A stretch of 64,000 nt of DNA from contig JAGWVF010000001.1 in NCBI GenBank assembly GCA_018971045.1, positions 11,480 to 75,479 on the forward strand, in the 5' to 3' direction. Shown in pieces: positions 9,751-42,986 of the stretch (position 1 is its first letter; the number at the start of each line of letters is the position of its first letter). The notes under the pieces are model-generated. The model made no database searches and was not told the DNA's origin. It saw only the letters and a list, made by a program, of their open reading frames with translations. Source of the DNA: Patescibacteria group bacterium (GTDB taxonomy: Bacteria; Patescibacteriota; Minisyncoccia; Phycocordibacterales; Phycocordibacteraceae). A program made the position numbers and the translations under genes.

Positions 9751-11898
<2,148 letters not shown>

Positions 11899-12418: not shown

Positions 12419-12835
12419 TTACTTGGCGGCCGACGGGCGCTTCGCGCCGTAACGAGAACGGCTGGTGCGGCGTTTCTCAAGGCCGGCGGTATCGAGCTTG
12501 CCGCGCACGATCGTGTACTGAACGCCGATATCCTTCACGCGGCCGCCGCGTAGAAGCACCACCGAGTGTTCCTGGAGATTATGCGTTTCGCCGGGGATGT
12601 AGGCGGTGATCTCCATACCGTTCGTGAGGCGGACGCGGGCGATCTTGCGGATAGCGGAGTTCGGCTTTCTCGGGGTCTTCGTGGTCACCTTGGTACAGAC
12701 GCCGCGCTTGAAGGGCGAGGCGTAGAAGGTCGGGTGGTTCTTGAGCGCATTGAAACCGCGCGCCAATGCCGGCACGCTCGTCTTGGACGACTTATTCTTC
12801 CGTCCTTTCCTCGAGAGCTGATTGATGGTGGCCAT
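12419..12835 (-). CDS. rpsL: 30S ribosomal protein S12
   Basis: [35 protein letters not shown]...PKKPNSA..., a canonical S12 sequence. Confidence 0.95.
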
Positions 12836-12865
12836 TTAGAAAAAGAAAACCCGAGATGGGTCTCA

Positions 12866-12897
12866 CGCAATATAAAGGAATAACGGTAGAAATGCAA
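12866..12897 (-). promoter_or_regulatory. Candidate sigma70-type promoter of the str operon
   Basis: Minus-strand TTGCAT-N17-TATATT about 35 nt upstream of the rpsL ATG. Confidence 0.4.
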
Positions 12898-12939
12898 CAC
12901 TATGTCCCGCGGAACCGGCATCTCCGGTATTCTCGATCG

Positions 12940-14046
12940 CTACCTTTCAGGATCGATCGGCTCTCGATACGGGTCGGCAGAGTAGGAGCGCGGGGCGGCA
13001 GGATGCGGCGGCGTGATCGGCATCGCGGGATTTGCCGGAGTAGTAGCCCGTATCGGCATCGCCTTCTGCGGCGAGAGCTCTTGCGGTATGAGCGGAGCCG
13101 ATTGAATCGGGGCGATGGAAGGAGCGGGGCGGGGCGCTTGATACAAAGGTGCCGATCGTGAACCGGGCACTGCGACTGCCGGCAATGCTCCGGGAAGATT
13201 CTGCTGAGTCGTCCTCGCCACCTCGATATGCGACTCTTCATGGTCCTCAAGGAGCTGGCTCGATTCTACCAGTCTCGTATACGCCGGTTGGGGAGCCGGT
13301 TCTGGGCGCGCCGGTTGAGTGGGCGGCGCCGGGCGGTGGTCTGTCGGATTGGCTTGCAACTTATTTATAGAACGCGGCTGAGGTCGCGCCTGAGGAACCG
13401 CGCGCAGGTACGCGCCGAGATTCGCGCTCTCTTGATTCGGGTAGCGGGGCGACTGCGGCGGCGGCGCGAAATATCCCGGCGGATTTTCAGGCATATAGCT
13501 TGCCGAAAACGGCTTCTCCTTCGGCAATGAAACCGGCTCGGATATTTCCGAGCGCATCTCGGCGACTCCGGGTGAACCGACCGGACGGAGTATGGGCTCG
13601 GCTGGCGCCACGGGTGCGGGCGGCGTCACTGGGCGCATATCCGGCGGCATCATGAGCCGCTCCGCAGGCAGCGGAGGCGGGACTGCTCTCGCGGGCGTGA
13701 CGGGCACCTCCCCCACGACCGGCCCCCGTTCCATCTCCTGCCGTATCGGGATGAACAGTTGCTGATTCAAATCTTGCACAATGCCGCTGACTGCCGCCTC
13801 ATCGAGGCCGCCATCTTCGAAAAGCGCTTGAATAAATTCTTCATCGGTCTTTAAGCCAAGAAGGAGTAGTATCATTTCACGCTCGACAACAACACCCGCA
13901 TCAATATGGAGCTTATATTTGAATGTCAGATCCCTTGCGACTGATTCGACTTTTCCATTCGCAAATACTGATCGGATCTGCGGAGGCACCTGAGAGAGCA
14001 CCTCCCGTACGTCGTTCTCGAGCGATTGATCAAGCGGCGGATTCAT
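12940..14046 (-). CDS. Proline-rich low-complexity protein with a conserved N-terminal ~110-aa domain
   Basis: 368 aa. The N-terminal region is globular-looking (DLTFKYKLHIDAGVVVEREMILLLLGLKTDEEFIQALFEDGGLDEAA); the remainder is PxxP-rich. Confidence 0.55.
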   Translation of the reverse strand: MNPPLDQSLENDVREVLSQVPPQIRSVFANGKVESVARDLTFKYKLHIDAGVVVEREMILLLLGLKTDEEFIQALFEDGGLDEAAVSGIVQDLNQQLFIPIRQEMERGPVVGEVPVTPARAVPPPLPAERLMMPPDMRPVTPPAPVAPAEPILRPVGSPGVAEMRSEISEPVSLPKEKPFSASYMPENPPGYFAPPPQSPRYPNQESANLGAYLRAVPQARPQPRSINKLQANPTDHRPAPPTQPARPEPAPQPAYTRLVESSQLLEDHEESHIEVARTTQQNLPGALPAVAVPGSRSAPLYQAPRPAPSIAPIQSAPLIPQELSPQKAMPIRATTPANPAMPITPPHPAAPRSYSADPYREPIDPER

Positions 14047-14052
14047 AGGGTG

Positions 14053-16200
14053 CTAGGGGTGAGCTCCGCCGGCAGCCGCTCCTCCGGGCGCGGCAGGTGC
14101 CGGCTGTGATTGACGTTCGAGAATATCCAAAAGAATCTTTGTGTCTTTCTCTGCTTTCGATTTTCCTGCCGCGTCTCTAATTTTATCAGCGGCTTTTGAG
14201 TTGGCATAGGGATTGATGAAATTAACGGTTCTTCTAAAGAATCCTCCTTTGTTTTGATCGATGTATAGATTTAATCTCTCGGCATATTTCATCTGCGGCG
14301 CCTTTTTCAATCTTTCGACTTCTGTTTGATGCACCTTCACTTCTTCTTCTTGAACTTTCACTAGTTGATCGTGAACGCTCTTTAACTTCTCCTGCTCTCT
14401 CTTCTGCTCGTCGCGTTTTTGCGCCTGATCAGCGAGCGCCGTATTGAGCGAGAAGGTTGCCGCTCTGATCGCATCCGCGTTACCGCTTGCCTGTGCCGCC
14501 GCGAAGTTCGCGCGCTCCGCCTCAATCTGATTATTAAACGGTTCAATATCATTCTTATGCTGCTTACGAAGCGCTTCCATTTCGCTGTTGTTTTGTCTCT
14601 TGATGTCCTCTACGGTATTCTCCATCATCGTCTTTCGTCTCTCTGCTTCTTTTTGTTGTTTCTTTTCCTTTCCTGTTTGCTGGAGAGACTCCGCGAATTC
14701 CTCGTGCTCTTTAATCTTCTTTTTCTCCATTTCGCGGAACCCGCCCTTATTCGCCGCGCCGAGATTGACTCCAGACACTAACGGGATGGATTTGAGCGTC
14801 TCGATACCGCGAAAATCGAAGCTGGCCTTCGCGCCGCGGCCAAGCGCCCCCTGAAGCGGTTTGCCGACGAAAGGAACGCGCCCGACTCTCCGAGAGAGAC
14901 CCTGGGATAATCTCCCGACTGAGTTGCGCATACCCCACCCCGTGAGGCCGAAGGTCAGCTTCCCGGCAGTCTTGGTCGCCCAATCGCCGCCGAAGGCGGA
15001 CCAGCGCTTCGAATAGACAATGACGAGGAGCAGGAGCCCCATCGCGACAAGGAAGGAGAGGATGATGCCGGCAAAGCCGGCGAAATCAGTGGATCCGTTT
15101 GAACTTGTGATGAATCCCGTCCAATCGGGCTCGCTGTTTCCGTTAAGAGCGATGAATTTCGCATCGGTAATCACTGCGAGAGCGATGTAGAGCATCAGCA
15201 TCAGGATCGGTGCCGTAACGGTCTGTTCAAAGAGGAGCGCCCACCACTGCTTCGCGCGGGCGGCGAAGCCGGGTATAGCGAGGCCGGCGAAGCCGACCGG
15301 GGCCACGATAATAAGAAAGATGAGCGCGACGAAACGCGCGATAAGAATAAACGCGAGCGAGAACATCACGAATGCGGTTGTGAGGAAGAGGATGATGCTC
15401 ATGAAGCCGATAAGTATCGAGCTTGAGTTGCTCAACACTACGCCATTCGTGATTGCGCTCGCGTAGATCCCCTGGAGCCCTAATTGATTCATCAGCTTGC
15501 TCGCAATGCCCTCGTTCTTGATCGAGTCGAGGTCGAAGTTCTTCGCGCCTGCCGGAGTGCCGCCATTGATCTGAGTATAAAATTGAGTGGCGAAAAGATT
15601 GCCGGCGTCTATGATCGCCTCGGAGAAGAAGAGAGAAAAATTGATGAATATCGCGCCGACGAGAAGCATCGGGAGCATCTTGCGTATCCCGTACCAATCC
15701 GTATTCAGGATCGTCGCGATACCCACCGCGAGAAATCCGAAGATAAAGAGAATATTCCCGATATCACGCAGAATCCGCCACGTGATGCCGATCGCGGCGA
15801 GATTTCTCACATAGTCTCCCATGGTAACGACGGTGTAATACACCGCATTGTCGAGCGTGATCGCCGCGACCCCGACCATCCACGCGAACAGCTGTGTGAT
15901 CCAGGTTATGACTTTGGCGAGCGAGTCGTCGATCTGAGGGCCGCTCTGGAAGATGCTCGGCGTCGCGGCAGCCTTCGGGTCCTGCTTGGCCATATCGGCA
16001 ACAGCTTGGCTGACGCCGCTTTGAGAAGCGGCATTGGTCGCATCTATACTAGCCTGCGAGTACGCGCTTCCTGTCGTCGGATCAATAAGAATACCCGGAT
16101 CAGGATTCGCCGCGTCTTGCGCCTGCGCGACGGGAGCCGTACTCATCGCTCCTAGAGTAAGCGCGAGAAGGATGAGCGAAGTGGTAAGGAAGCGTTTCAT
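14053..16200 (-). CDS. Polytopic membrane protein with signal peptide, ~8 TM helices and a long charged coiled-coil C-terminus (VirB6/TrbL-like topology)
   Basis: 715 aa. MKRFLTTSLILLALTLGAMSTAPVAQA is a signal peptide. Multiple hydrophobic helices span residues ~100-420. The C-terminus is K/E/Q-rich heptad-like (REMEKKKIKEHEEFAESLQQTGKEKKQQKEAERRK...). Confidence 0.65.
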   Translation of the reverse strand: MKRFLTTSLILLALTLGAMSTAPVAQAQDAANPDPGILIDPTTGSAYSQASIDATNAASQSGVSQAVADMAKQDPKAAATPSIFQSGPQIDDSLAKVITWITQLFAWMVGVAAITLDNAVYYTVVTMGDYVRNLAAIGITWRILRDIGNILFIFGFLAVGIATILNTDWYGIRKMLPMLLVGAIFINFSLFFSEAIIDAGNLFATQFYTQINGGTPAGAKNFDLDSIKNEGIASKLMNQLGLQGIYASAITNGVVLSNSSSILIGFMSIILFLTTAFVMFSLAFILIARFVALIFLIIVAPVGFAGLAIPGFAARAKQWWALLFEQTVTAPILMLMLYIALAVITDAKFIALNGNSEPDWTGFITSSNGSTDFAGFAGIILSFLVAMGLLLLVIVYSKRWSAFGGDWATKTAGKLTFGLTGWGMRNSVGRLSQGLSRRVGRVPFVGKPLQGALGRGAKASFDFRGIETLKSIPLVSGVNLGAANKGGFREMEKKKIKEHEEFAESLQQTGKEKKQQKEAERRKTMMENTVEDIKRQNNSEMEALRKQHKNDIEPFNNQIEAERANFAAAQASGNADAIRAATFSLNTALADQAQKRDEQKREQEKLKSVHDQLVKVQEEEVKVHQTEVERLKKAPQMKYAERLNLYIDQNKGGFFRRTVNFINPYANSKAADKIRDAAGKSKAEKDTKILLDILERQSQPAPAAPGGAAAGGAHP

Positions 16201-16203
16201 ACG

Positions 16204-17826
16204 TTAAGGGCCGCCACCGACGATGCTGCCATTGCCGCCGCTGTTGTCCTGGCCGCACGCTATTTGCAGGCTCGCCGCATTTGAAGTGACGAGCTCGAGC
16301 CGATCGACGAGCGAACCGCCGGATACGTTCAGAGAGCCGGGCGGCACCGCTTTGGCTAGAGCATTGTGCGAAGTGGCTTCTTGATTAGCATCGAGCACAT
16401 CTTGATCCGTCGGGGCCATATCCTGCAGAGCTTGAAGATTGTTCGTGTAGGAGGCCTTCCCTTCTATCGTTTTGGTATTTTGCGCGTCCGTCGCTTGCGC
16501 TATGAAGGCGCGCGCTGATGCGACGGTTACCGCCACATTTCTTGCGTTATTTAATACCGGGGCCACCTCATTCGTCATCGCATCCTGTGCGGCCGCTGCC
16601 GAGCCGGGACAGGAGTTCGCGAGATTGGCGAGCGCCGCAGAAGCATTCTGCGCGGCATTTTTGATAGTATTCCAGGATGATTCGAGGTCGTTTACGCGCT
16701 TTGTCGCGGCGTCTGCCACGGTTCTTTGAATATCCGCGGAATTTTGGAAGACGGTATCGGTTGTTATTCCTAAGAAAGCCGATCTGTCGTAGGCTGAGAG
16801 AGAGTTCGCGCCGTTATTCGTGCCGAAGCCGGCGAGACCTCCCGATCCATGGCCGCCGAGAATCGATTGGGCGAGATTTATTGTCTGGAATATCGTAGCG
16901 ATTTGACCCATCATTTGATTGACCTCATTTGCGACCTGACCCATTGTAACGATCTTGTCCTGGGCCGAACCGAGAACCTTATCGAGCGTCGATTTAATAG
17001 TTGTGCCGGGAGTCTGAATGGTGCCGGGGGTTCCGTCGCTATTGGTGCAGGGCTCGCCGGGGTTCACGCCATTCCCGGCGGATCCTCCTTTCGCGGCGGC
17101 CGCACCGTCGTCAGTCGTCCCGCACCACGACATAAACCCTTGGCCCCACGCAATGATTTGGCTGCGGGTGTTCTGCGCATCGGCGACGATTGAACCGAGC
17201 TGGCTTTCGGCCGCTTGATAGAGTGCATAGGGATTATTCTGGGGCTGGGTGGTAAGCGCGAACCAGGCCTTCACGCCGCCGCCCTGCGCCCAGTTTCCCT
17301 TCAGGAAAGTATTGATATTTGGCGAGGCGAGAGAGAGCGTGCACTTATTCGCGGCCAAGAAGCCGGCCAGGCTTGTCTTCTGACTATACGAGTCCTTCAG
17401 CGAAGTCGCGATTGCGTCGGAAAAGGGCGAGCTCAAGACACTCTTGTTCTTGAGCTGAAGGAAGAAGGCGTTCGCCTGGATATCGCCCACCTTCTGCAGG
17501 GTCACTTGGAGATTCTGAGTGAATTGCGGCTGACCGGTTCCATTGGACTGGCCGATGACAAAGGCGAGAACGCCCGCAGTCATCGCTTTCAGCAACCCGA
17601 CCGACATCACAAACGCGAGCGGTTGAAGCACGTAGGTATTGATGCGCTGTGCCCAAGTCGCTATAGAGGTGATGGTGTTTTTTATCTCGTCGAGAAAATC
17701 ATTGGTCGGGACACCGGTAACGCTTTGTGCGTGAGTTACGGAAGGATATGCGAATAGAGTCGCCGGGACCACTAACGCCAGTATCAACAAGACCGCCGTA
17801 AGTGATTTGAAAAAACGAGTATTCAT
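16204..17826 (-). CDS. Secreted Gln/Asn/Thr/Ala-rich protein with signal peptide plus a second N-terminal hydrophobic helix
   Basis: 540 aa; MNTRFFKSLTAVLLILALVVPATLFA signal peptide. Separated by 3 nt from the downstream gene. Confidence 0.6.
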   Translation of the reverse strand: MNTRFFKSLTAVLLILALVVPATLFAYPSVTHAQSVTGVPTNDFLDEIKNTITSIATWAQRINTYVLQPLAFVMSVGLLKAMTAGVLAFVIGQSNGTGQPQFTQNLQVTLQKVGDIQANAFFLQLKNKSVLSSPFSDAIATSLKDSYSQKTSLAGFLAANKCTLSLASPNINTFLKGNWAQGGGVKAWFALTTQPQNNPYALYQAAESQLGSIVADAQNTRSQIIAWGQGFMSWCGTTDDGAAAAKGGSAGNGVNPGEPCTNSDGTPGTIQTPGTTIKSTLDKVLGSAQDKIVTMGQVANEVNQMMGQIATIFQTINLAQSILGGHGSGGLAGFGTNNGANSLSAYDRSAFLGITTDTVFQNSADIQRTVADAATKRVNDLESSWNTIKNAAQNASAALANLANSCPGSAAAAQDAMTNEVAPVLNNARNVAVTVASARAFIAQATDAQNTKTIEGKASYTNNLQALQDMAPTDQDVLDANQEATSHNALAKAVPPGSLNVSGGSLVDRLELVTSNAASLQIACGQDNSGGNGSIVGGGP

Positions 17827-18854
17827 GGCTGAGGCGCGCCGCTCGTGCCCGAAACGCCGGACATGAGATTTACGAACGATGCTCCCGGTGAACCTGCCGC
17901 GAGATGTATGCCGGCGGCGGCATAGACTGACCCAATGTCCGTGAACGCCTTGGCGAGACCCTGCACGGATGACTGATACTGGGTAAGCGCGAGTATCGCG
18001 GCAAGCGGATCGGTGTTTACCAGAGTGAAATCGTTAATGACTTTACTCATGTGCATAAGCGCATTGATAAGTTCGAGATCCTGCCCGGCAAGCTCTTGAG
18101 GAACGGGAAGCACGACAAGACCTGTGGCTGAATCACGATACGATTTAGCTATGGCTGCGATAAAGGTTAGCGCGGTTGCATTCCCGTTTTCAGCTTCTTT
18201 TAAATAGGCTAATTCGGTAGTCGTCGCGTTATTCGAATTTTTTCTCAAGAGATTCTCCGCATCGGCGGCGAAGGAAAGGAGCGCGCTCGAGCCTGACGCG
18301 CCAATCACTAAATCCGCGGGGTTCTTATACTTCGGCGTAATCGCGACAGACGAGGAGAGCATATTCACGGCACGGTTCACTACATCGCTCATTTGAGCAT
18401 CAGTGAGATCAGCGCCGCCGGCATTTTGTTTGGCTTGGAGATAGAGCATGAAAAAGGTCTTCGAGAAGGCGGCGGTCAGCGTCCCGTCCGCGGGAGCCGG
18501 CGGGAGATCGTCGACGCCGAGGGTTGCCGGGGTCGCGGTCGCGACGGGAATGTCCGCGATCGCCTTCGGCACGATGAGTCCCTTCGCCACCGCCTCGCCA
18601 TCGGTCATTCCGAGATTGAAGTAGTCCGTCGTCGTACTGTCGATGGGGATGCCGTAGAGCGTTTTCTGCCAGTCGGGCAGGCCGTCGCCGTTTGAATCTT
18701 TCGTCGCGATCGCCCGAAGGAGCTCCGTCTCAGTCGAAGCTTCCGCAACCGAGGGCGCCGCGGCGCCGCGAGCGAGCAGGAAGGCGCTCCCTATGAGCAC
18801 CGCTGAAAACAGTGATGCGAGAATGACACGCCAATTTCTTACTATGCCCCCCAT
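17823..18854 (-). CDS. Membrane-anchored protein with a dockerin/thrombospondin-type Ca-binding motif (DSNGDGLPDWQ)
   Basis: 343 aa; N-terminal TM (ILASLFSAVLIGSAFLLA). Stop/start ATGA overlap with the next gene. Confidence 0.55.
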   Translation of the reverse strand: MGGIVRNWRVILASLFSAVLIGSAFLLARGAAAPSVAEASTETELLRAIATKDSNGDGLPDWQKTLYGIPIDSTTTDYFNLGMTDGEAVAKGLIVPKAIADIPVATATPATLGVDDLPPAPADGTLTAAFSKTFFMLYLQAKQNAGGADLTDAQMSDVVNRAVNMLSSSVAITPKYKNPADLVIGASGSSALLSFAADAENLLRKNSNNATTTELAYLKEAENGNATALTFIAAIAKSYRDSATGLVVLPVPQELAGQDLELINALMHMSKVINDFTLVNTDPLAAILALTQYQSSVQGLAKAFTDIGSVYAAAGIHLAAGSPGASFVNLMSGVSGTSGAPQP

Positions 18855-18941
18855 AGTATGCTTATTCAGTATACCAGTAGTACGCGAGGGATACAGTCAA
18901 TAGCGCCTACGATATGTGCATTAGAATGCTATTCTACGCGT

Positions 18942-19940
18942 ATGCGAACGCGCTCTGTTTTATTGTCAATTCTATTCTTCTTCGCGGCACTCTTCGGAGG
19001 GGCGGCGGCTCACGCGCTAGGCGTTCAGAACGAGATATTTTCAGCAAATCTCTCTATCGGGTCTTCCGGAATACAGGTAATGGCTCTTCAACAGCTCCTC
19101 AATAAAGATCCGGCAACGCGCGTTTCCGCTGATGGTCCCGGATCTCCGGGAAATGAGACCGGGCACTTCGGAACGATGACCCGAGCGGCGGTGATCCGTT
19201 TCCAGGAGAAGTACGCGGACGAAATCCTGATTCCCGCCGGACTTATCCGTGGCAATGGGCGCGTCGGGCTCTTCACTCGGGCCAAATTGAACGCACTCGT
19301 GGCACAGTCGATCGGCGCACAAAGAATCTCCCAATCGACAACAACGGCTGTGAAAGCTCCGGCAATCTCCGTTGCTACCGCGACATCCACCAATCCAAAT
19401 CTAAAAAATAGCGCGATATTCCTCGCTGCAATTGACAACATTGCCGTTAAAAAAGGGATGGGCGCGACCGCTATCGCGACAATGAACGAACAAATGTTGA
19501 AAGCGCTGGCGACGACGACCGATCTTCGCGCGGCGTTTATCCAAACAGTAGAGAAGAAATCCGCCCTGTCGCTTCAAGATACCGGATTCCTCGATCATCT
19601 GGTAAACGACATCGGTCAGATCCTTGAAAAGACCTTCATGCCCGAGCGGGCATACGCCGCAACAGGCGTACCGTTCGGCGGCGCCCTGCTCTTCACTTTC
19701 TATTGCTGGAATAGCAATACTTGGCTTATCGGTGTCGAGCCGCTTCCCCCCTCCTTCGCGTCCATTCTCACCTACGTGCCTGAATCTCAAGCGTTTCTCT
19801 CCTATAATATCCCCGCTACCACTTGGCTACTTGGAGAATATGCGCCCGGCGCGGGAGTCTGTGTCTTTGCATGCCCTTTCTGCGTCTCTGTCCCGTCAGA
19901 AGGAATGATCACCCCGATGACCGGATCGTCTCCTTTGTAA
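18942..19940 (+). CDS. Secreted peptidoglycan-binding-domain (PG_binding_1) protein with a Cys-rich C-terminal domain
   Basis: From the internal Met, MRTRSVLLSILFFFAALFGGAAAHA is a signal peptide. ...LQQLLN...DGPGSPGNETGHFGTMTRAAVIRFQEKY...GRVGLFTRAKLNAL is a PGBD-like fold. The C-terminus has CW...CVFACPFC. Confidence 0.55.
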   Translation: MRTRSVLLSILFFFAALFGGAAAHALGVQNEIFSANLSIGSSGIQVMALQQLLNKDPATRVSADGPGSPGNETGHFGTMTRAAVIRFQEKYADEILIPAGLIRGNGRVGLFTRAKLNALVAQSIGAQRISQSTTTAVKAPAISVATATSTNPNLKNSAIFLAAIDNIAVKKGMGATAIATMNEQMLKALATTTDLRAAFIQTVEKKSALSLQDTGFLDHLVNDIGQILEKTFMPERAYAATGVPFGGALLFTFYCWNSNTWLIGVEPLPPSFASILTYVPESQAFLSYNIPATTWLLGEYAPGAGVCVFACPFCVSVPSEGMITPMTGSSPL

Positions 19941-20682
19941 GAACCATCCATACGTCAAGCGGCAGATCTTCGGCGCGGGCCTTTTCAAGAATATCTCCCG
20001 CCTCAAAACCGGCGTCGGCGAGATTGTTGCGTACATATTTTCGTTTGTGCGCGAAGCCCGCGTGAAGAAGCGCGAAAAAACGTTCTTCTTCGGCGCGCGA
20101 AGCGAACCGCGCGCGGGAAATGCCGCGAATGGAAAGCACGGCCGAGTCAACCTTTGGCATAGGGCGAAAGGCGCCCTTCGGAACGGTAAATTCATATCTC
20201 GGCGCGCCGTACGCTTTGATCGAGAGCGAGAGGAGCGATTCCTTTTTACTGCGCGCGACGCGTTCGGCGACTTCCTTCTGCACCAAGAGCGTCATCGAGG
20301 CCGGCTGGTTCAGCGCAGTGAGAAATAATCTGAATATCTCGCCCGTGAGGTAATAGGGGATATTCGCGACAAGCGCATATCCCTTCGGAAGGGCTTCGAT
20401 ATCGAACGCGCGGATATCGCCGTGTAAAAGTTCGAGCTGGCCGTTTGCGATCTCGGCTGAAAAATCGTGCCTCAATTTCTCGACCAGTTCGCGATCAGCC
20501 TCGAGGGCGATCACCTTCTTCGCTTTCTTCAGAAGTTCGCGCGTGAGCGTTCCGGTCCCCGGTCCGATCTCGCATACGGTTGCGTCTCGAGCGATCTCGG
20601 CAACAAGTACGATGCGCTCCGCGATGCGCGCATGCATCAAGAAATTTTGTCCGAGCGACTTCTTCGGGCGCACGCTAGGCAT
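19909..20682 (-). CDS. rsmA: 16S rRNA (adenine1518/1519-N6)-dimethyltransferase
   Basis: SLGQNFL motif, SAM-binding EIGPGTGTLT, NIPYYLTGEIF. Confidence 0.85.
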   Translation of the reverse strand: MPSVRPKKSLGQNFLMHARIAERIVLVAEIARDATVCEIGPGTGTLTRELLKKAKKVIALEADRELVEKLRHDFSAEIANGQLELLHGDIRAFDIEALPKGYALVANIPYYLTGEIFRLFLTALNQPASMTLLVQKEVAERVARSKKESLLSLSIKAYGAPRYEFTVPKGAFRPMPKVDSAVLSIRGISRARFASRAEEERFFALLHAGFAHKRKYVRNNLADAGFEAGDILEKARAEDLPLDVWMVLTKETIRSSG

Positions 20683-22615
20683 CGATGATGTCCTCTCCAT
20701 ACGCGTCATCATACTGCATCACGATGCTGTCGATATCGGCAAGAAAGGATGACGGTTCGAAGGCGTAGTCGCTGCCGTAGATCTTGCGCACCCGGGCGAG
20801 CGTGAGAAAGAGGCGCTCCTTCGCGCGCGTCATCGCCACGTAGAAAAGGCGGCGCTCCTCCTCCGCGTCGCGATCCGTATCGTCTCCCATTCCCTCGTGC
20901 GGGAAGAGCCCCTCTTCCATGCCGGCGACAAAAACGGTGCCGAATTCGAGTCCCTTCGCGGCGTGCACGGTCATGAGCGTTACGCCCGGCCTCTCGCCGC
21001 GATCGAGCTCGTCTTGGTCGCTTGCGAGAGCCGTTTCGGCGAGAAAGGCCGCGATACCCTCCTTCCCCGCGACGGCGTCGTGGCGCGCCGCCACCGACGC
21101 GAGCTCTTCGACGTTCTGAAAGCGCTCGCGATCCTCGGCGTTCCCCTCTTCATACAGTACCCGACGCATGCCGCTCGTCTCGACCGCGAGCTTGACGAAC
21201 TCCGAAGGGATGAGCGTCAGGGCGGCGCGCGCGAGATCGTTTATCGCGCGCTCGAATGCCTCGACCTTCGCGCGTTCGCCGGCACGGAGCTCGGAACGCT
21301 GTCCCGCGGCCATCTTGCCGAGCGTTACTTTCCCGATGCCGCGCGGCGGCGCTCCCGCCGCGCGCACCGTATCGGCCTCGCGCGAAGGATCGAGCGCGAG
21401 CCGCATCCACGCGAGAGCGTCTTTCACCTCCTTCCGCGCGAAAAAGCGCGTGCCGAGCAGTTTGTAGGGTACGCCGGCGCGTAAGAGCCCTTCCTCGAGC
21501 GCGCGGGATTGGAAATTGGTGCGGAAAAGTATCGCGATGTCTTCCGGCGGCGTCCCGTTCTGCATCAGTCCGCGGATTTTCCGCGCGATCCAGAGCGCCT
21601 CTTCCTCGGCATTGACCGCTAGATGCGCCACGATCGGCTCTCCCGGCTCGTTCTCGGTGGTTGAATACTTTTCTTTGCGATTCTTATTCTTTTCGATGAC
21701 CGCATTTGCCGCGTCAACTAAGTTCTTCGTCGAACGATAATTACGCTCGAGAATAATCGTCTGCGCGGCGGGATACGTCTTTTCGAATTCGAGCAGATTC
21801 TCGATCGTCGCGCCACGCCACGTGTAGATGGTCTGATCGATATCGCCGACGACAAAAAGATTCTGATGCTTCGCCGCGAGCAGATTCGCGAGACGTCCTT
21901 GAAGCGCACTCGTATCTTGGTATTCGTCAATGTGGATATAGCGCCAGCGGTTCTGCGCTTGCTCGAGAATATCCGCATGCTCTTCGAGGAGCCGTGCCGG
22001 GAGCGCGATCAGATCGTCGAAATCGAGCGCTTTCTCGTCGGCGAGCGTCTTCTCGTAACGCAGCCATGTTTCGGCGGTAATGCGCATACCGAACCCGGAG
22101 CGCGAATACTTCTCAAAGAATTCCCTCGCATTCATTCCCGCGCCTTTAGCGCGGGAGATGCGGCCGAGGATCGCGCGCGGCGACAGCTCTTTGGCGCCGA
22201 CGTCGAGCGCTTTGAGCGCCGCCCCGATCGCTTTTTCGGAATCGTCGCGGTCGTAAATGCCGAAGAAGCGCGGAATGCCGATTCTCTTTCCGTACTGTTC
22301 GAGGAGTTCCCGGCCGAGTCCGTGGAACGTGGCGATAAAAGGCGCTTCTTCGGCATCGCGCCGCTCGTTCGGCGCAGAATCAAGCGGGACAGAAAACGTT
22401 GCGCGCACGCGCTCGCGCATCTCCCGCGCCGCTTTGTTGGTAAAGGTAACCGCGAGAATCTCCCGCGCGGGTACTCCTTGGCGAACGAGGTGGTAGATGC
22501 GCGTGGTTAAAACGCGCGTCTTCCCGCTCCCGGCGCCCGCGAGAACCGAGATCGGCCCGTCGGTCGTGAGGATCGCCCGTTTTTGCGCTTCATTCAATCC
22601 ATCGAGGTAATTCAC
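20675..22615 (-). CDS. UvrD/PcrA/Rep-family ATP-dependent DNA helicase
   Basis: 646 aa; LNEAQKRAILTTDGPISVLAGAGSGKTRVLT (motifs Q/I), VTFTNKAAREM, DEYQDTS... Confidence 0.9.
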   Translation of the reverse strand: MNYLDGLNEAQKRAILTTDGPISVLAGAGSGKTRVLTTRIYHLVRQGVPAREILAVTFTNKAAREMRERVRATFSVPLDSAPNERRDAEEAPFIATFHGLGRELLEQYGKRIGIPRFFGIYDRDDSEKAIGAALKALDVGAKELSPRAILGRISRAKGAGMNAREFFEKYSRSGFGMRITAETWLRYEKTLADEKALDFDDLIALPARLLEEHADILEQAQNRWRYIHIDEYQDTSALQGRLANLLAAKHQNLFVVGDIDQTIYTWRGATIENLLEFEKTYPAAQTIILERNYRSTKNLVDAANAVIEKNKNRKEKYSTTENEPGEPIVAHLAVNAEEEALWIARKIRGLMQNGTPPEDIAILFRTNFQSRALEEGLLRAGVPYKLLGTRFFARKEVKDALAWMRLALDPSREADTVRAAGAPPRGIGKVTLGKMAAGQRSELRAGERAKVEAFERAINDLARAALTLIPSEFVKLAVETSGMRRVLYEEGNAEDRERFQNVEELASVAARHDAVAGKEGIAAFLAETALASDQDELDRGERPGVTLMTVHAAKGLEFGTVFVAGMEEGLFPHEGMGDDTDRDAEEERRLFYVAMTRAKERLFLTLARVRKIYGSDYAFEPSSFLADIDSIVMQYDDAYGEDIIDA

Positions 22616-22852: not shown

Positions 22853-23869
22853 ATGATTCTGCCGAACATTGCCAGCGCCTTCTGGCCATTTTCTACGGAC
22901 GCAAGCGCCGCTCAGGCGACTTCGGCTCCCGACGCATCGACTCCGGTATTGCAAGCGTCAGTCAATATCGACCCGAACCCGAATAAGGGTCTCGGCGCGA
23001 GCCTCCAAACGAGCGGAGGGAAGGCGCTCCTCGCGTATGCGGGTCCCTCAGGCACCATCGCCGATGTCGCGAGCTCGACTCCCTCGGATCGCATCTCGAT
23101 CTACGTCGTACGCCCCGGCGATACTCTTTCCGAAATCGCCTCAATGTACGGCGTCTCGGTAAACACCATCATTTGGGCGAATAATCTGAGCGGCGCGACC
23201 GATGTCCACCCTGGCGATACCCTGATCATCCTCCCTGTCTCTGGACTCGAGCACACGGTCGCGAAGGGCGATACTCTCAAATCGCTCGCTGCAAAATACG
23301 GCGCTGACGCGACCGAAATCGCACAATATAACGGCGTGGATGCGAATACTCCGCTTGTGATCGGTTCCAGGATCATGATCCCGGGCGGCGAGCTCGGAGG
23401 TCCGAGTCAATCTTCACCCGCGAAACGCCCCGGCGGCTCGCGATCGACCAAGGATCCGTATCGCGGCGGAGGCGGCGCGCTTATCGCCGGCTATTTCAGC
23501 AACCCGATTATGGGCGGTATCATCACCCAAGGACTCCATGGATGGAACGCCGTCGATATCGGTGCCGCGATCGGAACCCCGATCCACGCGGCGGCCGACG
23601 GTACCGTCATCATCGTGCGCAACAACGGCGGCTTTAACGGCGGTTACGGCAATTACGTCGTGATTACCCACCCGAACGGAACGCAGACGCTTTATGCGCA
23701 CTTGCGGGCGGCGATCGTCTCGCCCGGACAGGAAGTCTCGGACAGCCAGATCATCGGGTATGTCGGCATGACCGGCCACACGACCGGCCCGCACGTCCAC
23801 TTCGAAGTTCGTGGCGCGGCAAATCCCTTCTCCCACTGCACCATCGGATCCGCCTGTTCTCCGCAATAA
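22853..23869 (+). CDS. LysM-LysM-M23 (LytM-family) peptidoglycan endopeptidase
   Basis: Two LysM repeats (YVVRPGDTLSEIASMYGVSVNTI...; HTVAKGDTLKSLAAKYGADATEIAQYNGV) and an M23 core (HGWNAVDIGAAIGTPIHAAADG ... GQEVSDSQIIGYVGMTGHTTGPHVHFEV). Confidence 0.85.
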   Translation: MILPNIASAFWPFSTDASAAQATSAPDASTPVLQASVNIDPNPNKGLGASLQTSGGKALLAYAGPSGTIADVASSTPSDRISIYVVRPGDTLSEIASMYGVSVNTIIWANNLSGATDVHPGDTLIILPVSGLEHTVAKGDTLKSLAAKYGADATEIAQYNGVDANTPLVIGSRIMIPGGELGGPSQSSPAKRPGGSRSTKDPYRGGGGALIAGYFSNPIMGGIITQGLHGWNAVDIGAAIGTPIHAAADGTVIIVRNNGGFNGGYGNYVVITHPNGTQTLYAHLRAAIVSPGQEVSDSQIIGYVGMTGHTTGPHVHFEVRGAANPFSHCTIGSACSPQ

Positions 23870-25837: not shown

Positions 25838-27226
25838 TTATTGAAGGCGTGTCCGCGCATTGGCGAGGCGGCCCAAGAGGTCGGTAAAGGCCGCGGGATC
25901 GCGCGCGATAACAAGCGTGGTCGGATTCCAGTACCCGTAGAGAAGGAGGCTTCTTCCTTGCGCATCGCGGACGATGCGCACGTCATGATTGGCCACCGTA
26001 TCATCAACGAAGCGGACATTCGATGCGTTGGCGGACCCGTCTGCCGCAACGGTCGTTGACGCCGCAGTTGTTGACGCCGTAGCCGGCGCCTGCGGCGCAA
26101 AGAGCGTGCCGAGATCGGTGAGGATCCGGGGCTCCCAGGTCAGCATCCCCGCCAGAGTTTCGTTATACGCAGCTACCGAGAGGATAAAAAAGATCGATTG
26201 TCTCCCGCCCTGCCACGTCGCGCTTTTCGTCATGATGACGCCGGCCATACTCCCTACGGCGTTCACGTTGCGAACGAGCGCATCGGGCGCCGATGTTCTA
26301 AGCGCCGCAAGGATATTCTCGGTCGCGCTCGCCGCCTCGGTGGAAGTCGCGATCGTGAGAAATCGAACCGTTCCCGACGCAAGCGGTAAGCTTGCTGACT
26401 CCGCGAGAGCCTGAATAAGCGCCTGTCCCCGCCCCGAGACCGTCACGCGCTCATCGACGACGATCGGTGTCGGTATCGTCGCGGTCGGAATGACGGGTAC
26501 GTTTCGCGCCGCATACTGCCGATAGGCATAATAAGATCCGGCCGCTCCGGCGATAAAAAGCACCGCTCCCGCGATGCTGTAGACAATCGCGGGAGAAAAT
26601 CGCGCTCTTGGAACATCGGTTCTCGGTTCTCCTTGGAGCGCGTCCTGCTCTGCGGCGAGCACCGTCGCCGTTGATGCGCGCGTCTTCTGTACGCGTTCCA
26701 TGAAATCCCCCGAGTACGTCTGGAGCGGGCTGGCCGATCGTTTGTAGGTGAGCGGCGGAACGGGAGGTTCGGGAGATTGCTCCGGAGCAAAGATGGGGCG
26801 CGGCATCGCCGGATCTTGGGGAATAAAGGCTGGCTGAAACGGCATTGACGGAGGAGGCGGCGGTTCAATCGGCGGCGGAAGAGGCGTCTCAATGGGTGGA
26901 GGTATCGCGGGCGGCGGTTCCGGCGCGGGCGCTGGTTCTCGAATCGGCTCCGGAAGCGGTTCGGGGACCGCAATCGGCTCCAACGCCGGCTCTGGCTCTG
27001 GCGCCTGCGGTGGAGGTGGAGGTGGAGGTGGAGGTGGCACTGGAGTAGGCGGAGTAATCGTGGCCGCCCTCTCTTCTTGCGGCGAAGAAGGAGTCGGCGG
27101 GACGAAAGTCTGCAGATTGAGCTTCTTCAATTCCTCGAGATCTCCCTCGTAGGTGCGCACGAACTTCTTCGGCTGATCTTCCGAAGCGCCGAGAATCGTA
27201 TCCGACGTTGATGGAGTGGTATCCAT
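25838..27226 (-). CDS. Single-pass membrane protein: proline-rich cytoplasmic N-terminus, central TM, extracytoplasmic C-terminal domain
   Basis: 462 aa; poly-Pro (PPPPPPPPPPP) encoded by a (GGAGGT)n tandem repeat; TM segment FSPAIVYSIAGAVLFIAGAAG. Confidence 0.55.
   Translation of the reverse strand: MDTTPSTSDTILGASEDQPKKFVRTYEGDLEELKKLNLQTFVPPTPSSPQEERAATITPPTPVPPPPPPPPPPQAPEPEPALEPIAVPEPLPEPIREPAPAPEPPPAIPPPIETPLPPPIEPPPPPSMPFQPAFIPQDPAMPRPIFAPEQSPEPPVPPLTYKRSASPLQTYSGDFMERVQKTRASTATVLAAEQDALQGEPRTDVPRARFSPAIVYSIAGAVLFIAGAAGSYYAYRQYAARNVPVIPTATIPTPIVVDERVTVSGRGQALIQALAESASLPLASGTVRFLTIATSTEAASATENILAALRTSAPDALVRNVNAVGSMAGVIMTKSATWQGGRQSIFFILSVAAYNETLAGMLTWEPRILTDLGTLFAPQAPATASTTAASTTVAADGSANASNVRFVDDTVANHDVRIVRDAQGRSLLLYGYWNPTTLVIARDPAAFTDLLGRLANARTRLQ
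27009..27038. repeat. Hexanucleotide tandem repeat (GGAGGT)x5 encoding poly-proline
   Basis: ggtggaggtggaggtggaggtggaggtggc, in frame within CDS 25838..27226. Confidence 0.8.
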
Positions 27227-39410: not shown

Positions 39411-39525
39411 TTCTGGCGGCTAGCTACTCTCCCAGTCTGGAACGACTAGTACCATCGCCGCTAGGAGGCTTAACTTCCGTGTTCGGAATGAGAACGGGTG
39501 TGACCCTCCCGCCAAACCACCAGAA
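39411..39525 (-). rRNA. rrf: 5S rRNA
   Basis: ...CCGAACACGGAAGTTAAGC... loop C motif. Helix I pairs UUCUGGUGG with CCGCCAGAA. Flanked by the 16-bp inverted repeat GAGCATTCTGTTCTGG/CCAGAACAGAATGCTC (processing stem). Confidence 0.85.
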
Positions 39526-39895
39526 CAGAATGCTCGAACGTATATATAAACGAATACGATTGGCAATGAATATCGTGATATGCAGGATTCCGCACGAGAG
39601 ACTGGACTTATTAGTACTCCTCGGCTCCATACCTTGCGGTACTTCCACCTAGAGCCTATCAACGTGGTCATCTCCCACGAGTCTCATAACGATTCCTAAT
39701 CTTGGGGCCCGTTTCCCGCTTATATGCTTTCAGCGGTTATCGGAACCCGACATAGCTACTCGGCGGTGCCGCTGGCGCGACAGCCGATAGACCAGAGGTC
39801 AGTTCATCCCGGTCCTCTCGTACTAGGGACAAACCCCCTCAAGAATCAACGCCTGTAGTAGATAGGAGACCAACCTGTCTCACGCATCTCGTTAA

Positions 39896-40171
39896 CTCCG
39901 ATTACTCGGAGGATCGGACTCTATCTTCACCCGGTCTGGGTGATCAACGTGTAGTCTCTCGGGGCGCGCTTTCACGCTTCCCTCGGTATTGCCCTCGCAT
40001 ACACAATGCGGTCGGGTTTTACCGATATCAGTTGATTTGCTCCGCGCGCATCCCTGCGCGCGACCGCCGTGAGTATGTCTTGCGCACACTGCGTCTCCAC
40101 GCAGCTAACAATTGCCTCGTGGGTTCAAACCGTTCAATGACCGATTTCGCAGTCAGTCGCTGAACGGTTTG
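39896..40171 (-). mobile_element. ORF-less group I intron in 23S near E. coli position 2585/2586 (peptidyl-transferase loop)
   Basis: Interrupts GGTACGCGAGCTGGGTT | ... | (T)AACGAGATGCGTGAGACAG. The 5' exon ends in U, paired with G of an internal guide (TGAACGGTTTGAACCC). R-like GAGAGACUACACG and S element AAGAUAGAGUCC are present, and the intron ends in G. Confidence 0.65.
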
Positions 40172-40824
40172 AACCCAGCTCGCGTACCTTTTTAAATGGC
40201 GAACAGCCATACGCTTGGGACCTTCTCCAGCCCCGCGCTAAGGTGAGCCGACATCGAGGTGCCGAACTCCGCCGTCGCTATGGACGCTTGGGCGGAACTA
40301 GCCTGTTATCCCCAGGGTAACTTATATCCGTTAATCTCTGGCCGCTTCTAAGGCGTACCATCGGTTCACTATGCTCTGCTTTCGCATCTGCTCGGGATGT
40401 ACCCCTCGCAGTTAAGCTCTCTTTTGCCATTACACTATCGGCACGGTTTCCATTCGCGCCTAGAGAACCTTAATAGACTCCTCCGTTACTTTTTAGGAGG
40501 ATAGCGCCCCACCAAAACTACCCGCCACGCACGGTCCCCTGTTGGATCCCAACAGGGTTAGACACTGCAAAATTCAAGAGTGGTATTTCACTGACGGATC
40601 CACACCAGCCGAAACCGGTGCTTCAAATCCTCCCACCTATGCTACGCATGAATCCCGCAGTGCCAATACGAAGCTGTAGTAAAGCTCCTGGGGTCTTTTC
40701 GTCTAACTACAGGTATCCGGCATCTTCACCGGAACTGCATTTTCACCGAGCGAGTCCTCGAGACAGTTTCCCACTCATTACACCATTCGTGCACGTCGGA
40801 ACTTACCCGACAAGGAATTACGCT

Positions 40825-41502
40825 CTAGGCTCCTTTCAACCTTTGGACTCTATCTTCACCCTTTTCAGGGGATGGCGTTTGGTCTCTGGGGATTTCAAGA
40901 ATTGTGACGGCACTTTTCGATTCATCTTTTGAATCTTACGCGCAACCATTTGCATACCGCTCATTTCCTGATGGCGTTTATTCGCCACGAGCTCTACGAT
41001 CTCAGCAAAGAACTCGAAATCGTTTTGCTTTGCGGTTTTAAGTGGATGTCTTCGAAAAAACGGGATGATAATGTGATGCAGATCGCTCACTGAGCGTACG
41101 CAATAACGATACAAATATTCGTGATGATTATCGTATCGCTTATTCACAAATATATTCCCGCACTCGAAAAACGATTTGAACAATTCGAGCGCAGACAGAC
41201 TTTTCTTTCCCTGAGTTATTACAAACTCTGGGAATACTTGCCAGCCGAGCTTCGTTGTCGCATTGCGGAAGATACTAACGGAGAAGCATCCTTCTCCGTC
41301 GGTAAATCCGACAATCCACCCTTCAATTCCTGATCTTTCCTGCGTACGAGTCATACCTAAGGTACATTGTAACCTTAAATACTTCGCGTTTGCATATAGC
41401 CATGTGGATTAATCCGCAGATTACTCTGCGGCAAGGTAGCGTTTTGCTGTTTACCACTACAATCGTCCCAATCCTGTCGCGTTCGAGTAACTCGAACGCG
41501 AC
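40825..41502 (-). mobile_element. Group I intron in 23S at E. coli position ~1931 (CCTAAGGT | AGCG) carrying a LAGLIDADG ORF
   Basis: The exons rejoin to CCTAAGGTAGCGTAATTCCTTGTCGGGTAAGTTCCGAC. The 5' exon ends in U and the intron ends in G. IGS-like ACCTTAGG, R-like CCAGAGACCAAACG and S element AAGAUAGAGUCC are present. The ORF reads through R/S to 11 nt before the 3' splice site. Confidence 0.7.
40836..41354 (-). CDS. LAGLIDADG homing endonuclease (single-motif, I-CreI-like), intron-encoded
   Basis: 172 aa; GWIVGFTDGEGCFSV LAGLIDADG motif near the N-terminus; located inside the 23S intron. Confidence 0.85.
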   Translation of the reverse strand: MTRTQERSGIEGWIVGFTDGEGCFSVSIFRNATTKLGWQVFPEFVITQGKKSLSALELFKSFFECGNIFVNKRYDNHHEYLYRYCVRSVSDLHHIIIPFFRRHPLKTAKQNDFEFFAEIVELVANKRHQEMSGMQMVARKIQKMNRKVPSQFLKSPETKRHPLKRVKIESKG

Positions 41503-42344: not shown

Positions 42345-42376
<32 letters not shown>

Positions 42377-42952
42377 TCACTGTTTATGAGTCCTCACTTC
42401 CTTGTGGATGTACTGAATGTCGATTTAGGGGCCTTAAGTGGCGATCAGGGCTCTTCCCCTCTCGTTCGATGGAGCTTCGCCCCCACCTACTAACTGCCGC
42501 CCGGGCCTCTGGTATTCGGAGTTTGATAGGAACCACGAGATTTCTCCCTGTTGGTCCCTTCCAGTGCTCTACCCCCAGAGGCACATATGGCGACGCCAGC
42601 CCAAAAGCTGTTTCGGAGAGAACCAGCTATTCCCAGATTCGATTAGCTTTTCACTCCTTACCACAAGTCATCCCAAGACGTTGAACGATCTACGGGTTCG
42701 GGCCTCCAGCTGTCTTTCGACAACCTTCACCCTGCTCATGGTAAGCTCATCTGGCTTCGGGTCGTATATATCCTACAATCGCGCTATTCACGCTCGGTTT
42801 CCCTTAAGCTCCGCCCCGGAAGGGCTTAGCTACGCAAGATATACACACTCGCCGGCTCATTCTTCAATAGGCATGCCGTGACGGAATGGCTTGCGCCATC
42901 CGCTCCGACCCCTTGTAAGTACACGGTTTCAGGTCTATTTCACTCCCCTCTC

Positions 42953-42986
<34 letters not shown>

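Follow-up and report, generated by a model that had tools for sequence, protein, structure and literature searches.

The four-gene cluster described here (genes A to D) is a new member of the already described type IV secretion systems (T4SSs) of Patescibacteria. It very probably constitutes the membrane module, that is, the first four genes, of a chromosomal, MPF_FATA-like T4SS of this phylum that has been split from its ATPase half. A first-pass annotation of the 64-kb stretch of DNA analysed (hereafter the window) had put the cluster forward as a candidate uncharacterised cell-surface or secretion apparatus; that it stands alone is not supported, as A-D correspond to the first four genes of a described Patescibacterial T4SS operon (PMC12102498, PMC10633639, PMC12857230).

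Layout of the cluster and its neighbours

The cluster occupies the minus strand between ksgA and rpsL. According to the ORF coordinates, genes A and B overlap by 4 nt in an ATGA junction, whereas B and C are 3 nt apart and C and D 6 nt apart. The tight operon described earlier is thus confirmed, and its products do include envelope proteins of secreted, anchored and polytopic types. The elements of the region are as follows:

19909..20712, minus strand: ksgA (RrnaAD), the upstream anchor of the cluster, kept in all loci
18939..19940, plus strand, divergent: neighbouring gene E, encoding a secreted PG_binding_1 protein (E-value 2.3e-5)
17823..18854, minus strand: gene A, ORF of 343 aa
16204..17826, minus strand: gene B, ORF of 540 aa
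14053..16200, minus strand: gene C, ORF of 715 aa
12940..14046, minus strand: gene D, ORF of 368 aa
12836..12939, minus strand: spacer of 104 nt between D and rpsL, with a weak hairpin and T-run at 12846-12864
12419-12835: rpsL, beyond the spacer after D, followed by rpsG and fusA (9751-11898)

The probable true start of the E protein is M28 of an ORF beginning at 18858, and the product matches the peptidoglycan-binding part of phage endolysins. Since E was found in just 26 of 80 loci, it is not a core part of the cluster; it may be a cell-wall accessory.

Gene C and the VirB6/TrbL family

We identify C as an extended VirB6/TrbL homologue on the basis of sub-threshold profile matches, a model match to R388 TrwI, its topology and the linkage of its relatives to VirB4 and PrgI genes. 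The protein carries a signal peptide and seven predicted transmembrane (TM) helices, instead of the approximately eight that had been counted before; the signal peptide and the charged tail noted at that time were both recovered. The charges of the loops, including a segment after TM7 with 16 K+R versus 3 D+E, indicate an N-out/C-in orientation, and the helices of the AF2 model (pLDDT 77.4) agree with the predicted ones. C thus has the topology expected of VirB6, a polytopic protein of the cytoplasmic membrane with five or more TM helices, its N-terminus outside and its C-terminus inside. Two regions can be delimited:

15010..15912, minus strand: TM (TrbL-like) core of C, aa 97-397, with seven predicted TM helices, N-out/C-in
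14056..14733, minus strand: K/E/Q-rich, coiled-coil-like cytoplasmic tail of C, aa 490-715

Most of the invariant residues are located in the TM core, including R289 within a TM helix. The tail consists of 44% K+E+Q+R+D and yielded nothing except coiled-coil noise in a PDB sequence search; its sequence is poorly conserved yet the tail is always present, C orthologues being 600-848 aa long (median 703).

The C protein of the window gave no Pfam match at E<=1. Two of its orthologues, P0007 and P0030, matched Pfam TrbL (PF04610) with E-values of 2.2e-5 (24.8 bits) and 1.1e-4 (22.5 bits), and the family consensus did so with 7.4e-5 (23.1 bits), all of these scores falling below the gathering score of 25.9 bits. 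These matches run over the TM core and cover the profile almost end to end (from position 24 or 26 to 214 of 215). P0030 also came close to the cut-off for TrbL_4 (E-value 4.7e-6, 26.6 versus 27 bits). In a Foldseek search of the AF2 model against the PDB, R388 TrwI/VirB6 chains, whose identity was checked, took ranks 1, 2, 4 and 5, with probabilities of 0.94-0.98, TM-scores (target) of 0.42-0.45 over about 290 columns and weak E-values (0.07-0.2), while all other matches had probabilities of at most 0.28. An hhalign comparison of the C family profile with the single TrwI sequence found nothing.

Given that every sequence and structure score for VirB6 is sub-threshold, one might argue that the cluster has nothing to do with type IV secretion, C being some generic polytopic protein, its VirB6 likeness a helical-bundle artefact and the adjacency to virB4 seen in relatives a by-product of synteny near the replication origin. 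We consider this very improbable, as three independent weak signals agree, namely Pfam TrbL and TrbL_4, both over the full profile, and the sole high-probability Foldseek matches.

TrwI, which forms a stalk with TrwJ/VirB5 in the R388 system (PDB 7O3V, 8RT9, 8RTD), gave the top structural matches to the C core, no others being specific, and shares its N-out/C-in polytopic topology. Moreover, the gene for the secreted, helical B protein lies immediately upstream of C, as virB5 precedes virB6 (with eex between them in R388). However, identity to C is 13-18% and the TM-score about 0.43, C differs by its cleavable signal peptide, its low-complexity outer N-region and its ~300-aa cytoplasmic extension, B (540 aa) has no similarity to TrwJ, and the cell is monoderm and so lacks the core complex of an outer membrane. 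In conjugation systems of monoderms, VirB6 proteins such as TcpH (pCW3) and PrgH (pCF10) are extended, an N-terminal multi-TM region being followed by a large C-terminal hydrophilic domain. By description, C resembles them in these terms, which supports the VirB6/TrbL likeness suggested in the first-pass annotation, and a PrgI-type VirB3 and a TraG P-loop/AAA_10 VirB4 co-occur in both cases. The Patescibacterial system differs in being chromosomal and, most likely, non-conjugative and in having pilin genes, which are not known from monoderm conjugation systems. Extended forms of VirB6 have been described as a class (FEMS review, PMC12857230).

Conservation of the unit and its separation from the ATPase genes

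A relative of C is encoded by 255 GTDB species. The order A-B-C-D was retained in the best 80 of these 255 species loci and in 37 metagenome loci, in essentially every locus of sufficient length, so that the four genes are kept together as a unit, far above chance. All of the loci belong to Kaiserbacteria/Paceibacteria, and the lineage is Patescibacterial, as suspected earlier. Synteny extends over the entire comM-fusA region, and gene order alone is therefore weak evidence within the clade, a point that also favours the reading of the cluster as unrelated to secretion.

The relationship with the T4SS is visible in genomes in which the cluster continues into the remaining genes. There, ksgA is followed by A-B-C-D-PrgI(VirB3)-TraC-like/TrsD-VirB4-x1-x2-VirB2-like pilin-x3 (x1 to x3 being genes of unassigned function) and then by yidC-rnpA-dnaA. 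VirB4 was located by phmmer directly downstream of D in three loci, in which this order was confirmed, and seven more, which include the most divergent ones (29-37% identity), bring the contiguous loci to about 10. In these relatives, Pfam recognised PrgI (2.5e-11), P-loop_TraG (6.6e-27), AAA_10 and T4SS_pilin (7e-8); the TraG P-loop/AAA_10 VirB4 is adjoined by the TrsD/TraC-like protein and the PrgI-type VirB3, and the third gene after virB4 encodes the T4SS_pilin/TrbC domain protein. D and prgI are separated by 14-17 nt (read in two loci), at the place where the window has its 104-nt spacer. Such packing into one operon again argues against a cluster unrelated to secretion, in which case the operon would moreover be left without VirB6, a protein highly conserved among all T4SSs (PMC12857230).

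Both the gene content and the setting agree with what has been reported. Patescibacterial T4SSs comprise VirB3, VirB4 and VirB6 together with TrsD and VirB2 pilins; as a rule they have no relaxase, and ksgA, dnaA and rnpA lie nearby (Quinonero-Coronel et al. 2025, PMC12102498), ksgA being frequent near virB4 in Paceibacteria (PMC12102498). The present system shares the phylum, the component set (VirB3/PrgI, TrsD/TraC-like, VirB4, VirB6 and VirB2-like pilin, as read through in related loci), the neighbourhood of ksgA, yidC, rnpA and dnaA and the absence of a T4CP alongside. It departs from the described systems in that the VirB6 gene and its three partners lie 48-70 kb from virB4, outside the +/-20-CDS neighbourhood of the survey (PMC12102498), that C is too divergent for the Pfam thresholds, and that no named T4SS family was found for A, B and D.

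This separation is found in many species, split-type loci making up at least 62 of the 80 species loci and 16 of the 37 metagenome loci. In the sub-clade to which the window belongs, A-D stand in front of rpsL and the VirB3-TrsD-VirB4-pilin half is located beside dnaA. In the genomes in which both halves were placed, they are found on one chromosome or contig, approximately 70, 48 and 60 kb apart and on opposite strands, which fits a single inversion. The 104-nt spacer between D and rpsL may then be the junction left by the rearrangement. No VirB4 is encoded in the 64-kb window, which on the upstream side of A extends for 45 kb, and no TrwB/VirD4-like ORF was found in the window or in any of the loci; the missing ATPases had already been noticed, and the rearrangement, by placing the ATPase gene about 48-70 kb away, would account for the absence of VirB4. 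The split genomes accessible to a check, all of them relatives of the genome of the window, without exception retain the VirB4 half, and this half contains no other VirB6-like gene. In a published dataset, six of the six cluster-bearing genomes were VirB4-positive. It may be added that the two halves, being transcribed separately since the split, could have diverged in function.

The separation also raises the question of whether A-D could by now act as an autonomous envelope complex without VirB4, e.g. in adhesion or anchoring, or as a passive conduit for which a VirB6-like protein provides the scaffold. The module is transcriptionally apart from the ATPase half in many species (at least 62 plus 16 loci), it immediately precedes the str operon, which is highly expressed, and A-D evolve much faster than VirB4 (31-55% versus 87% identity in the same genome pairs). 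Set against this are the retention of a VirB4 half itself devoid of VirB6 in each checkable split genome, the orthology of A-D to the contiguous-type genes with no change of domains, and the precedent of dispersed T4SS genes that form one machine, as in Rickettsia (PMC12102498). We therefore regard autonomy as improbable.

A further reading, according to which A-D belong to an integrated conjugative element or are what is left of one, could appeal to VirB6-like proteins being typical of such elements and to a serine recombinase gene situated elsewhere in the window (50487-51812). Yet in more than 100 loci the cluster has a fixed chromosomal place, with ksgA on one side and either rpsL or prgI on the other, its GC content shows no anomaly, no relaxase, T4CP or integrase was noted nearby, and relaxases are rare in Patescibacterial T4SS loci (PMC12102498). 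The conserved core-genome synteny effectively refutes this reading, to which we attach hardly any weight.

The partner proteins and a possible mode of action

Features of A, B and D referred to below are:

18663..18698, minus strand: TSP3-type DxDxDG calcium-binding motif of A, aa 53-64, DSNGDGLPDWQK
16237..16764, minus strand: C-terminal helical-bundle domain of B, aa 355-530, AF2
12955..12975, minus strand: DPYREPI short linear motif of D, aa 358-364

A has a single N-terminal hydrophobic segment (aa 10-28), either a signal anchor or a signal peptide, right after which comes one DxDxDGxxD(W) repeat, as in TSP3_bac (PF18884). The alignment of its orthologues (57% mean column identity) shows D53, D57, G58, L59 and W62 to be invariant. 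TSP3_bac was matched by 24 orthologues at E<=0.01 (best 1.1e-7) and nearly so by their consensus (E-value 2.5e-5, 24.5 versus 25 bits), which supports the calcium-binding loop proposed in the first-pass annotation. The copy in the window (DSNGDGLPDW), with N at the second ligand position, is slightly degenerate, and the window protein alone gave no reported Pfam match, TSP3_bac included. The remainder is a conserved, apparently helical extracytoplasmic domain of ~250 aa that belongs to no known family (no PDB, Pfam or PHROG match); its alanine/leucine-rich, helical-looking sequence would speak against a VirB8/TcpC NTF2-like fold.

B possesses a signal peptide and a second hydrophobic helix (aa 73-91) and is rich in A, T, G, S, N and Q. 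Its alignments reveal a Cys-bounded loop with invariant C235 and C260 and a nearly invariant C406. The AF2 model has an overall pLDDT of 68.8, exceeding 90 for aa ~355-530, where helices 356-405, 407-448, 454-469, 474-484 and 506-528 form a bundle (pLDDT of the block 85-98). Pfam and PDB profile searches gave no match, and Foldseek against the PDB returned generic or designed helical bundles only. The earlier suggestion of a VirB5, PrgB or pilin-tip protein was not sustained: no VirB5 chain, or TraC-type minor pilin, was retrieved although TrwJ was in the library, and hhalign against TrwJ was negative.

D has no TM or signal segment and is thus cytoplasmic. It contains 18% proline and 13 PxxP motifs, with ~110 conserved N-terminal residues followed by proline-rich linkers, and had no Pfam, PDB or PHROG match. 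Its alignment shows an internal motif, LLEDHEE(P/S)HIE, and the C-terminal DPYREPI; of 79 D orthologues, 71 carry the DPYRE motif, which none of the other ORFs in the loci contains.

Returning to the membrane module of a split T4SS, we propose that a single inversion, one of whose breakpoints fell between D and prgI, created the split and that both halves still build a single machine. If the R388 stalk is taken as a model, C would oligomerise in the cytoplasmic membrane as a platform for assembly of the VirB2-like pilin or channel, and its basic, then coiled-coil cytoplasmic tail, together with D, may couple this platform to the VirB4/TrsD ATPase complex, D consisting of a folded N-domain to which proline-rich tethers attach its two short, conserved motifs. 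B, exported, presumably disulfide-stabilised, elongated and helical, could sit on the outer face of C and span or open the wall, in the position of VirB5 in diderm systems albeit with no detectable homology to it, and A may be a membrane-tethered calcium-binding accessory on the same face. These roles of A, B and D are suggested by position, topology and analogy only. The T4SS of S. epibionticum (SEML1_0006-0019) is essential for epibiotic growth (Wang et al. 2023, PMC10633639), and the present machine would most likely likewise serve a host-dependent lifestyle through transfer of proteins or other macromolecules, rather than conjugation, as in Saccharibacteria.

A bolder, quite speculative version would make A, B and D hitherto unnamed core subunits of the T4SS, with B as a wall-spanning stalk or tip replacing VirB5/VirB8 functions in these monoderms and D as a cytoplasmic tether that docks the VirB6 tail to VirB4/TrsD via its two short linear motifs. 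If so, the repeated survival of the split operon would imply that assembly of the VirB6 platform does not depend on the ATPase module. The B family itself is very large and unannotated (2761 clusters at 50% identity, E<=1e-3), and some of its variants bear a peptidoglycan-peptidase-like insert.

Conservation of the four-gene cluster

The ORF listing of the window returned exactly the four minus-strand genes that the first-pass annotation had described as a cluster, here named A to D.

The four genes in the ORF listing (anchors, signal peptides and helices from a hydrophobicity scan; D from hydrophobicity and composition analysis)
17823-18854, minus strand: A, 343 aa, anchor at the N-terminus
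16204-17826, minus strand: B, 540 aa, signal peptide and a single additional hydrophobic helix
14053-16200, minus strand: C, 715 aa, seven transmembrane (TM) helices behind a signal peptide
12940-14046, minus strand: D, 368 aa, soluble, 18% proline, 13 PxxP motifs

A and B overlap by 4 nt (ATGA), the gaps are 3 nt between B and C and 6 nt between C and D, and rpsL follows 104 nt beyond D, then rpsG and fusA. C was thus polytopic with a signal peptide, as proposed, with seven TM helices rather than about eight, and K, E, Q, R and D make up 44% of its tail (aa 490-715) according to composition analysis. None of the four proteins of the window had a significant match in Pfam, NCBIfam or PHROGs, and sequence-profile searches against the PDB returned only coiled-coil or helical noise.

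A Patescibacteria MAG encodes a hypothetical protein with exactly the sequence of C, and the hundreds of C homologues belong, every one, to Patescibacteria, Paceibacterota or Kaiserbacteria. With each GTDB species represented by one genome, a scan detected a C relative in 255 species, and the best 80 loci were surveyed for synteny by ORF calling and phmmer. Essentially every long-enough locus showed the order comM, M23/LysM (-), uvrD, ksgA, A, B, C, D, with a PG-binding gene, E (-), before A where present; D was overlooked by phmmer in a few loci and recovered there with an HMM. That is, the A-B-C-D order is kept and the gene set is conserved as a unit across related genomes, the absence of which had been named as evidence against the proposal of a surface apparatus. 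Since the entire surrounding region is syntenic, however, synteny by itself says little on function. An origin of A-D from a mobile element was rejected, given the fixed chromosomal synteny and the ordinary GC content of the region.

The VirB6-like protein C and its partners

The suspicion that the 715-aa protein resembles VirB6/TrbL proved correct. A few C orthologues bear precomputed TrbL-type Pfam labels; the window's own C protein has no Pfam match. In a fresh Pfam scan, two orthologues approached the TrbL/VirB6 profile PF04610 (cut-off 25.9 bits) from below the threshold, P0007 with an E-value of 2.2e-5 (24.8 bits) and P0030 with 1.1e-4 (22.5 bits); P0030 also matched TrbL_4 (4.7e-6, 26.6 bits versus a cut-off of 27). 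The TrbL alignments always covered profile positions 24-214 of 215, on the TM core, and the family consensus gave the identical alignment (7.4e-5). An AlphaFold2 model of residues 1-505, built with 118 homologues (pLDDT 77.4, pTM 0.67), was compared with the PDB using Foldseek, and ranks 1, 2, 4 and 5 were TrwI/VirB6 chains of the R388 type IV secretion system (T4SS) stalk, their identity as TrwI being confirmed against the R388 sequence. These matches had probabilities of 0.94-0.98, TM-scores of 0.42-0.45 and about 290 aligned columns, with weak E-values (0.07-0.2); all remaining matches had probabilities of at most 0.28. A comparison of the C family profile with the single R388 TrwI sequence by hhalign gave no signal. 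The charge distribution places the N-terminus of C outside and the tail inside, as in VirB6. Extended VirB6, the name of a class noted previously (PMC12857230), thus describes C best. In Paceibacteria of the Kaiserbacteria type, this VirB6 component is accompanied by three conserved partners that have no annotation.

The conserved motif that follows the anchor of A was identified as a bacterial TSP3 calcium-binding repeat, in 24 orthologues and in the consensus (E-value 2.5e-5); the remainder of A had no assignment. B belongs to a very large family: its profile, run against 1.84 billion representatives, gathered 2761 clusters at E≤1e-3, of which 1918 reach E≤1e-10. Its C235 and C260 are invariant and C406 nearly so, which fits with export, and its model is confident only in a C-terminal bundle of long helices. 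The suggestion that B is VirB5-like did not hold, as the Foldseek matches were all generic or designed bundles and the B family profile gave no hhalign signal with the single sequence of TrwJ, the R388 VirB5. Two long B variants, P0399 (aa 425-504) and P0427 (aa 518-591), carry an insert weakly resembling Peptidase_M15_4 (D-Ala-D-Ala carboxypeptidase-like; E about 1e-3, sub-threshold) in the Cys-loop region, where it separates the N-terminal half from the C-terminal helical bundle, and their genes are still in A-B-C-D order (locus L087). The insert is no more than a hint of cell-wall work in these variants. D has no export signal; it comprises a conserved N-terminal domain of about 110 aa and two conserved short motifs, LLEDHEEPHIEF and DPYREPI, within an otherwise variable proline-rich chain, DPYRE being found in 71 of the 79 D orthologues and in none of the remaining ORFs of the loci. 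Other proteins, which might have shared the D motifs as a docking signal, showed none of them.

Relation of the cluster to the T4SS operon

No VirB4 or VirD4 was detected in the window by phmmer with the R388 T4SS proteins, and all ORFs of at least 440 aa, as well as most of 200-440 aa, had other assignments. A hidden VirB4 or VirD4 was thus rejected, in agreement with the first-pass annotation, which had seen neither beside the cluster. When the same phmmer search was applied to all loci, VirB4-like ORFs appeared directly 3′ of D in L076, L078 and L080, precisely the three loci without rpsL. In L078 and L080, D is followed after 14-17 nt by PrgI/VirB3 (Pfam, 2.5e-11), then by a protein of about 230 aa at the TrsD position (TraC-like PF26593 in precomputed annotations), VirB4 (P-loop_TraG 6.6e-27, AAA_10), two unknowns, a T4SS_pilin/TrbC-domain protein (7e-8), one unknown, and finally yidC, rnpA and dnaA; the order from D to dnaA was confirmed for L076 as well as for these two. 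When C proteins of this contiguous type served as seeds for a metagenome scan, seven further contiguous loci (L111-L113, L118, L119, L123 and L124) and 16 split loci, in which A-D precede rpsL, came to light; L090 was L080 again. Because the contiguous loci include the most divergent relatives (29-37% identity), the contiguous 11-gene operon is probably ancestral. Its components and its ksgA/rnpA/dnaA neighbourhood agree with the patescibacterial T4SS as published (PMC12102498), which comprises VirB4, TrsD, PrgI, VirB2 pilins and, patchily, VirB6, rarely has a relaxase and likewise lies close to ksgA, rnpA and dnaA. Since C is VirB6-like and relatives have A-D in one operon with the T4SS core, the cluster belongs to a known system, from which it has become detached, and is not, as had been supposed, a stand-alone, uncharacterised apparatus.

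The three unnamed genes of the VirB4 half, x1, x2 and x3 (L083:11814-12716, 12713-13729 and 14613-15809), are unannotated and encode a 3-TM, a secreted and a TM-anchored protein, respectively; they are kept in contiguous and split genomes at 28-59% identity, and x2 of L078 has weak beta-sandwich/BiPBP_C-like matches. One Kaiserbacteria genome has two additional genes between the TraC-like/TrsD gene and virB4 (L127:2158-2989), encoding a DUF5680 protein and a 23S_rRNA_IVP/bAvd-like protein. Avd-type proteins are associated with diversity-generating retroelements.

Three split genomes were compared as pairs of loci (L065/L083, L015/L085 and L070/L127).

Distance between A-D and the VirB4 module in split genomes
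OY969413.1 (complete Kaiserbacteria chromosome): A-D at 694-716 kb, VirB4 module at 764-786 kb, about 70 kb apart
JBAYHD010000001.1: both on one contig, about 48 kb apart
JACPGH010000005.1: both on one contig, about 60 kb apart

In each of these genomes virB4 is located upstream of A, on the strand opposite to A-D and near dnaA. This arrangement would fit a single inversion close to the origin that had one of its breakpoints between D and prgI, and we infer that the split arose in this way; the corresponding virB4 position for the window would be just past its 64-kb end. There is neither a further VirB6-like gene nor an A-D paralogue in the VirB4 half, and both halves have been retained after the split in the split genomes checked. 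Moreover, the cluster-bearing genomes listed in a published dataset are all VirB4-positive (6/6). As A-D may lie tens of kb from virB4, they would be missed by neighbourhood-based surveys.

Amino acid identity between related loci
Window versus L065, neighbouring genes: EF-G 91%, S12 91%, UvrD 77%, KsgA 72%
Window versus L065, cluster: A 53%, B 40%, C 43%, D 43%
L078 versus L083: VirB4 87%, TrsD 71%, PrgI 62%, pilin 44%

Among the 120 matches listed, VirB4 proteins of the clade are 85-95% identical between species (e.g. L078:14096-15922 and L083:10001-11833), while in the same species EF-G is about 91% and the other T4SS parts 28-71% identical. The VirB4 motor is nearly as constrained as the translation apparatus; it hardly varies, and the exposed components evolve at several times its rate. 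Fast divergence of the envelope parts is expected for surface- or host-facing components.

Few patescibacterial machines have been shown to be indispensable for epibiotic life; the T4SS is one of them, namely in S. epibionticum (PMC10633639). Its composition beyond Saccharibacteria is poorly defined; a published survey detected VirB6 patchily and VirB8 rarely (PMC12102498). By analogy with the R388 stalk, C oligomers could form a membrane platform for pilin or channel assembly, and D and the cytoplasmic C tail might jointly couple this platform to VirB4/TrsD; B would occupy an outer-face or wall-spanning position, and A may be a calcium-binding accessory. The role would be transport for host interaction rather than conjugation, because no coupling protein was found near A-D or in the loci (phmmer, R388 T4SS proteins), relaxases are rare in the published survey and the system is essential in S. 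epibionticum. What the locus adds to the known system is the split architecture and the three unnamed conserved partner families, one of them very large and unannotated. A, B and D provide a concrete list of candidate parts for a monoderm, pilus-bearing, non-conjugative T4SS build.

Other features of the window

Three further secreted proteins concern the cell wall.

18858/18939-19940, plus strand: E, PG_binding_1 protein, divergent from A, in only 26 of the 80 loci
22853-23869, plus strand: LysM+M23 peptidase, two genes further upstream, kept in all loci
43834-45525, minus strand: PG_binding_1 protein, 563 aa

Any of these could be a VirB1-like wall-opener, proximity being the sole tie to the T4SS; E was rejected as an identifiable hydrolase. 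The 462-aa ORF at 25838-27226 (minus strand) has no Pfam match, and neither has a 463-aa gene at the equivalent position upstream of comM in L088, which makes it a conserved unknown.

The 23S rRNA gene (39592-43543, minus strand) measures 3952 nt, compared with 2925 nt for the model, and contains an ORF (40836-41354, minus strand) with a LAGLIDADG homing-endonuclease domain (E-value 4e-24). This points to an intron-type insertion, and such insertions are known from CPR rRNAs. The 5S gene (39411-39524) adjoins the 23S gene; in the whole window no 16S gene was detected. Finally, the stretch at about 46-54 kb has a GC content of 0.48-0.53, versus about 0.58 elsewhere, and several tRNAs. A large serine recombinase (50487-51812, minus strand; Resolvase, Recombinase and Zn_ribbon_recom domains) adjoins tRNA-Gly (50315-50386); the stretch may represent an integrated element or what remains of one.
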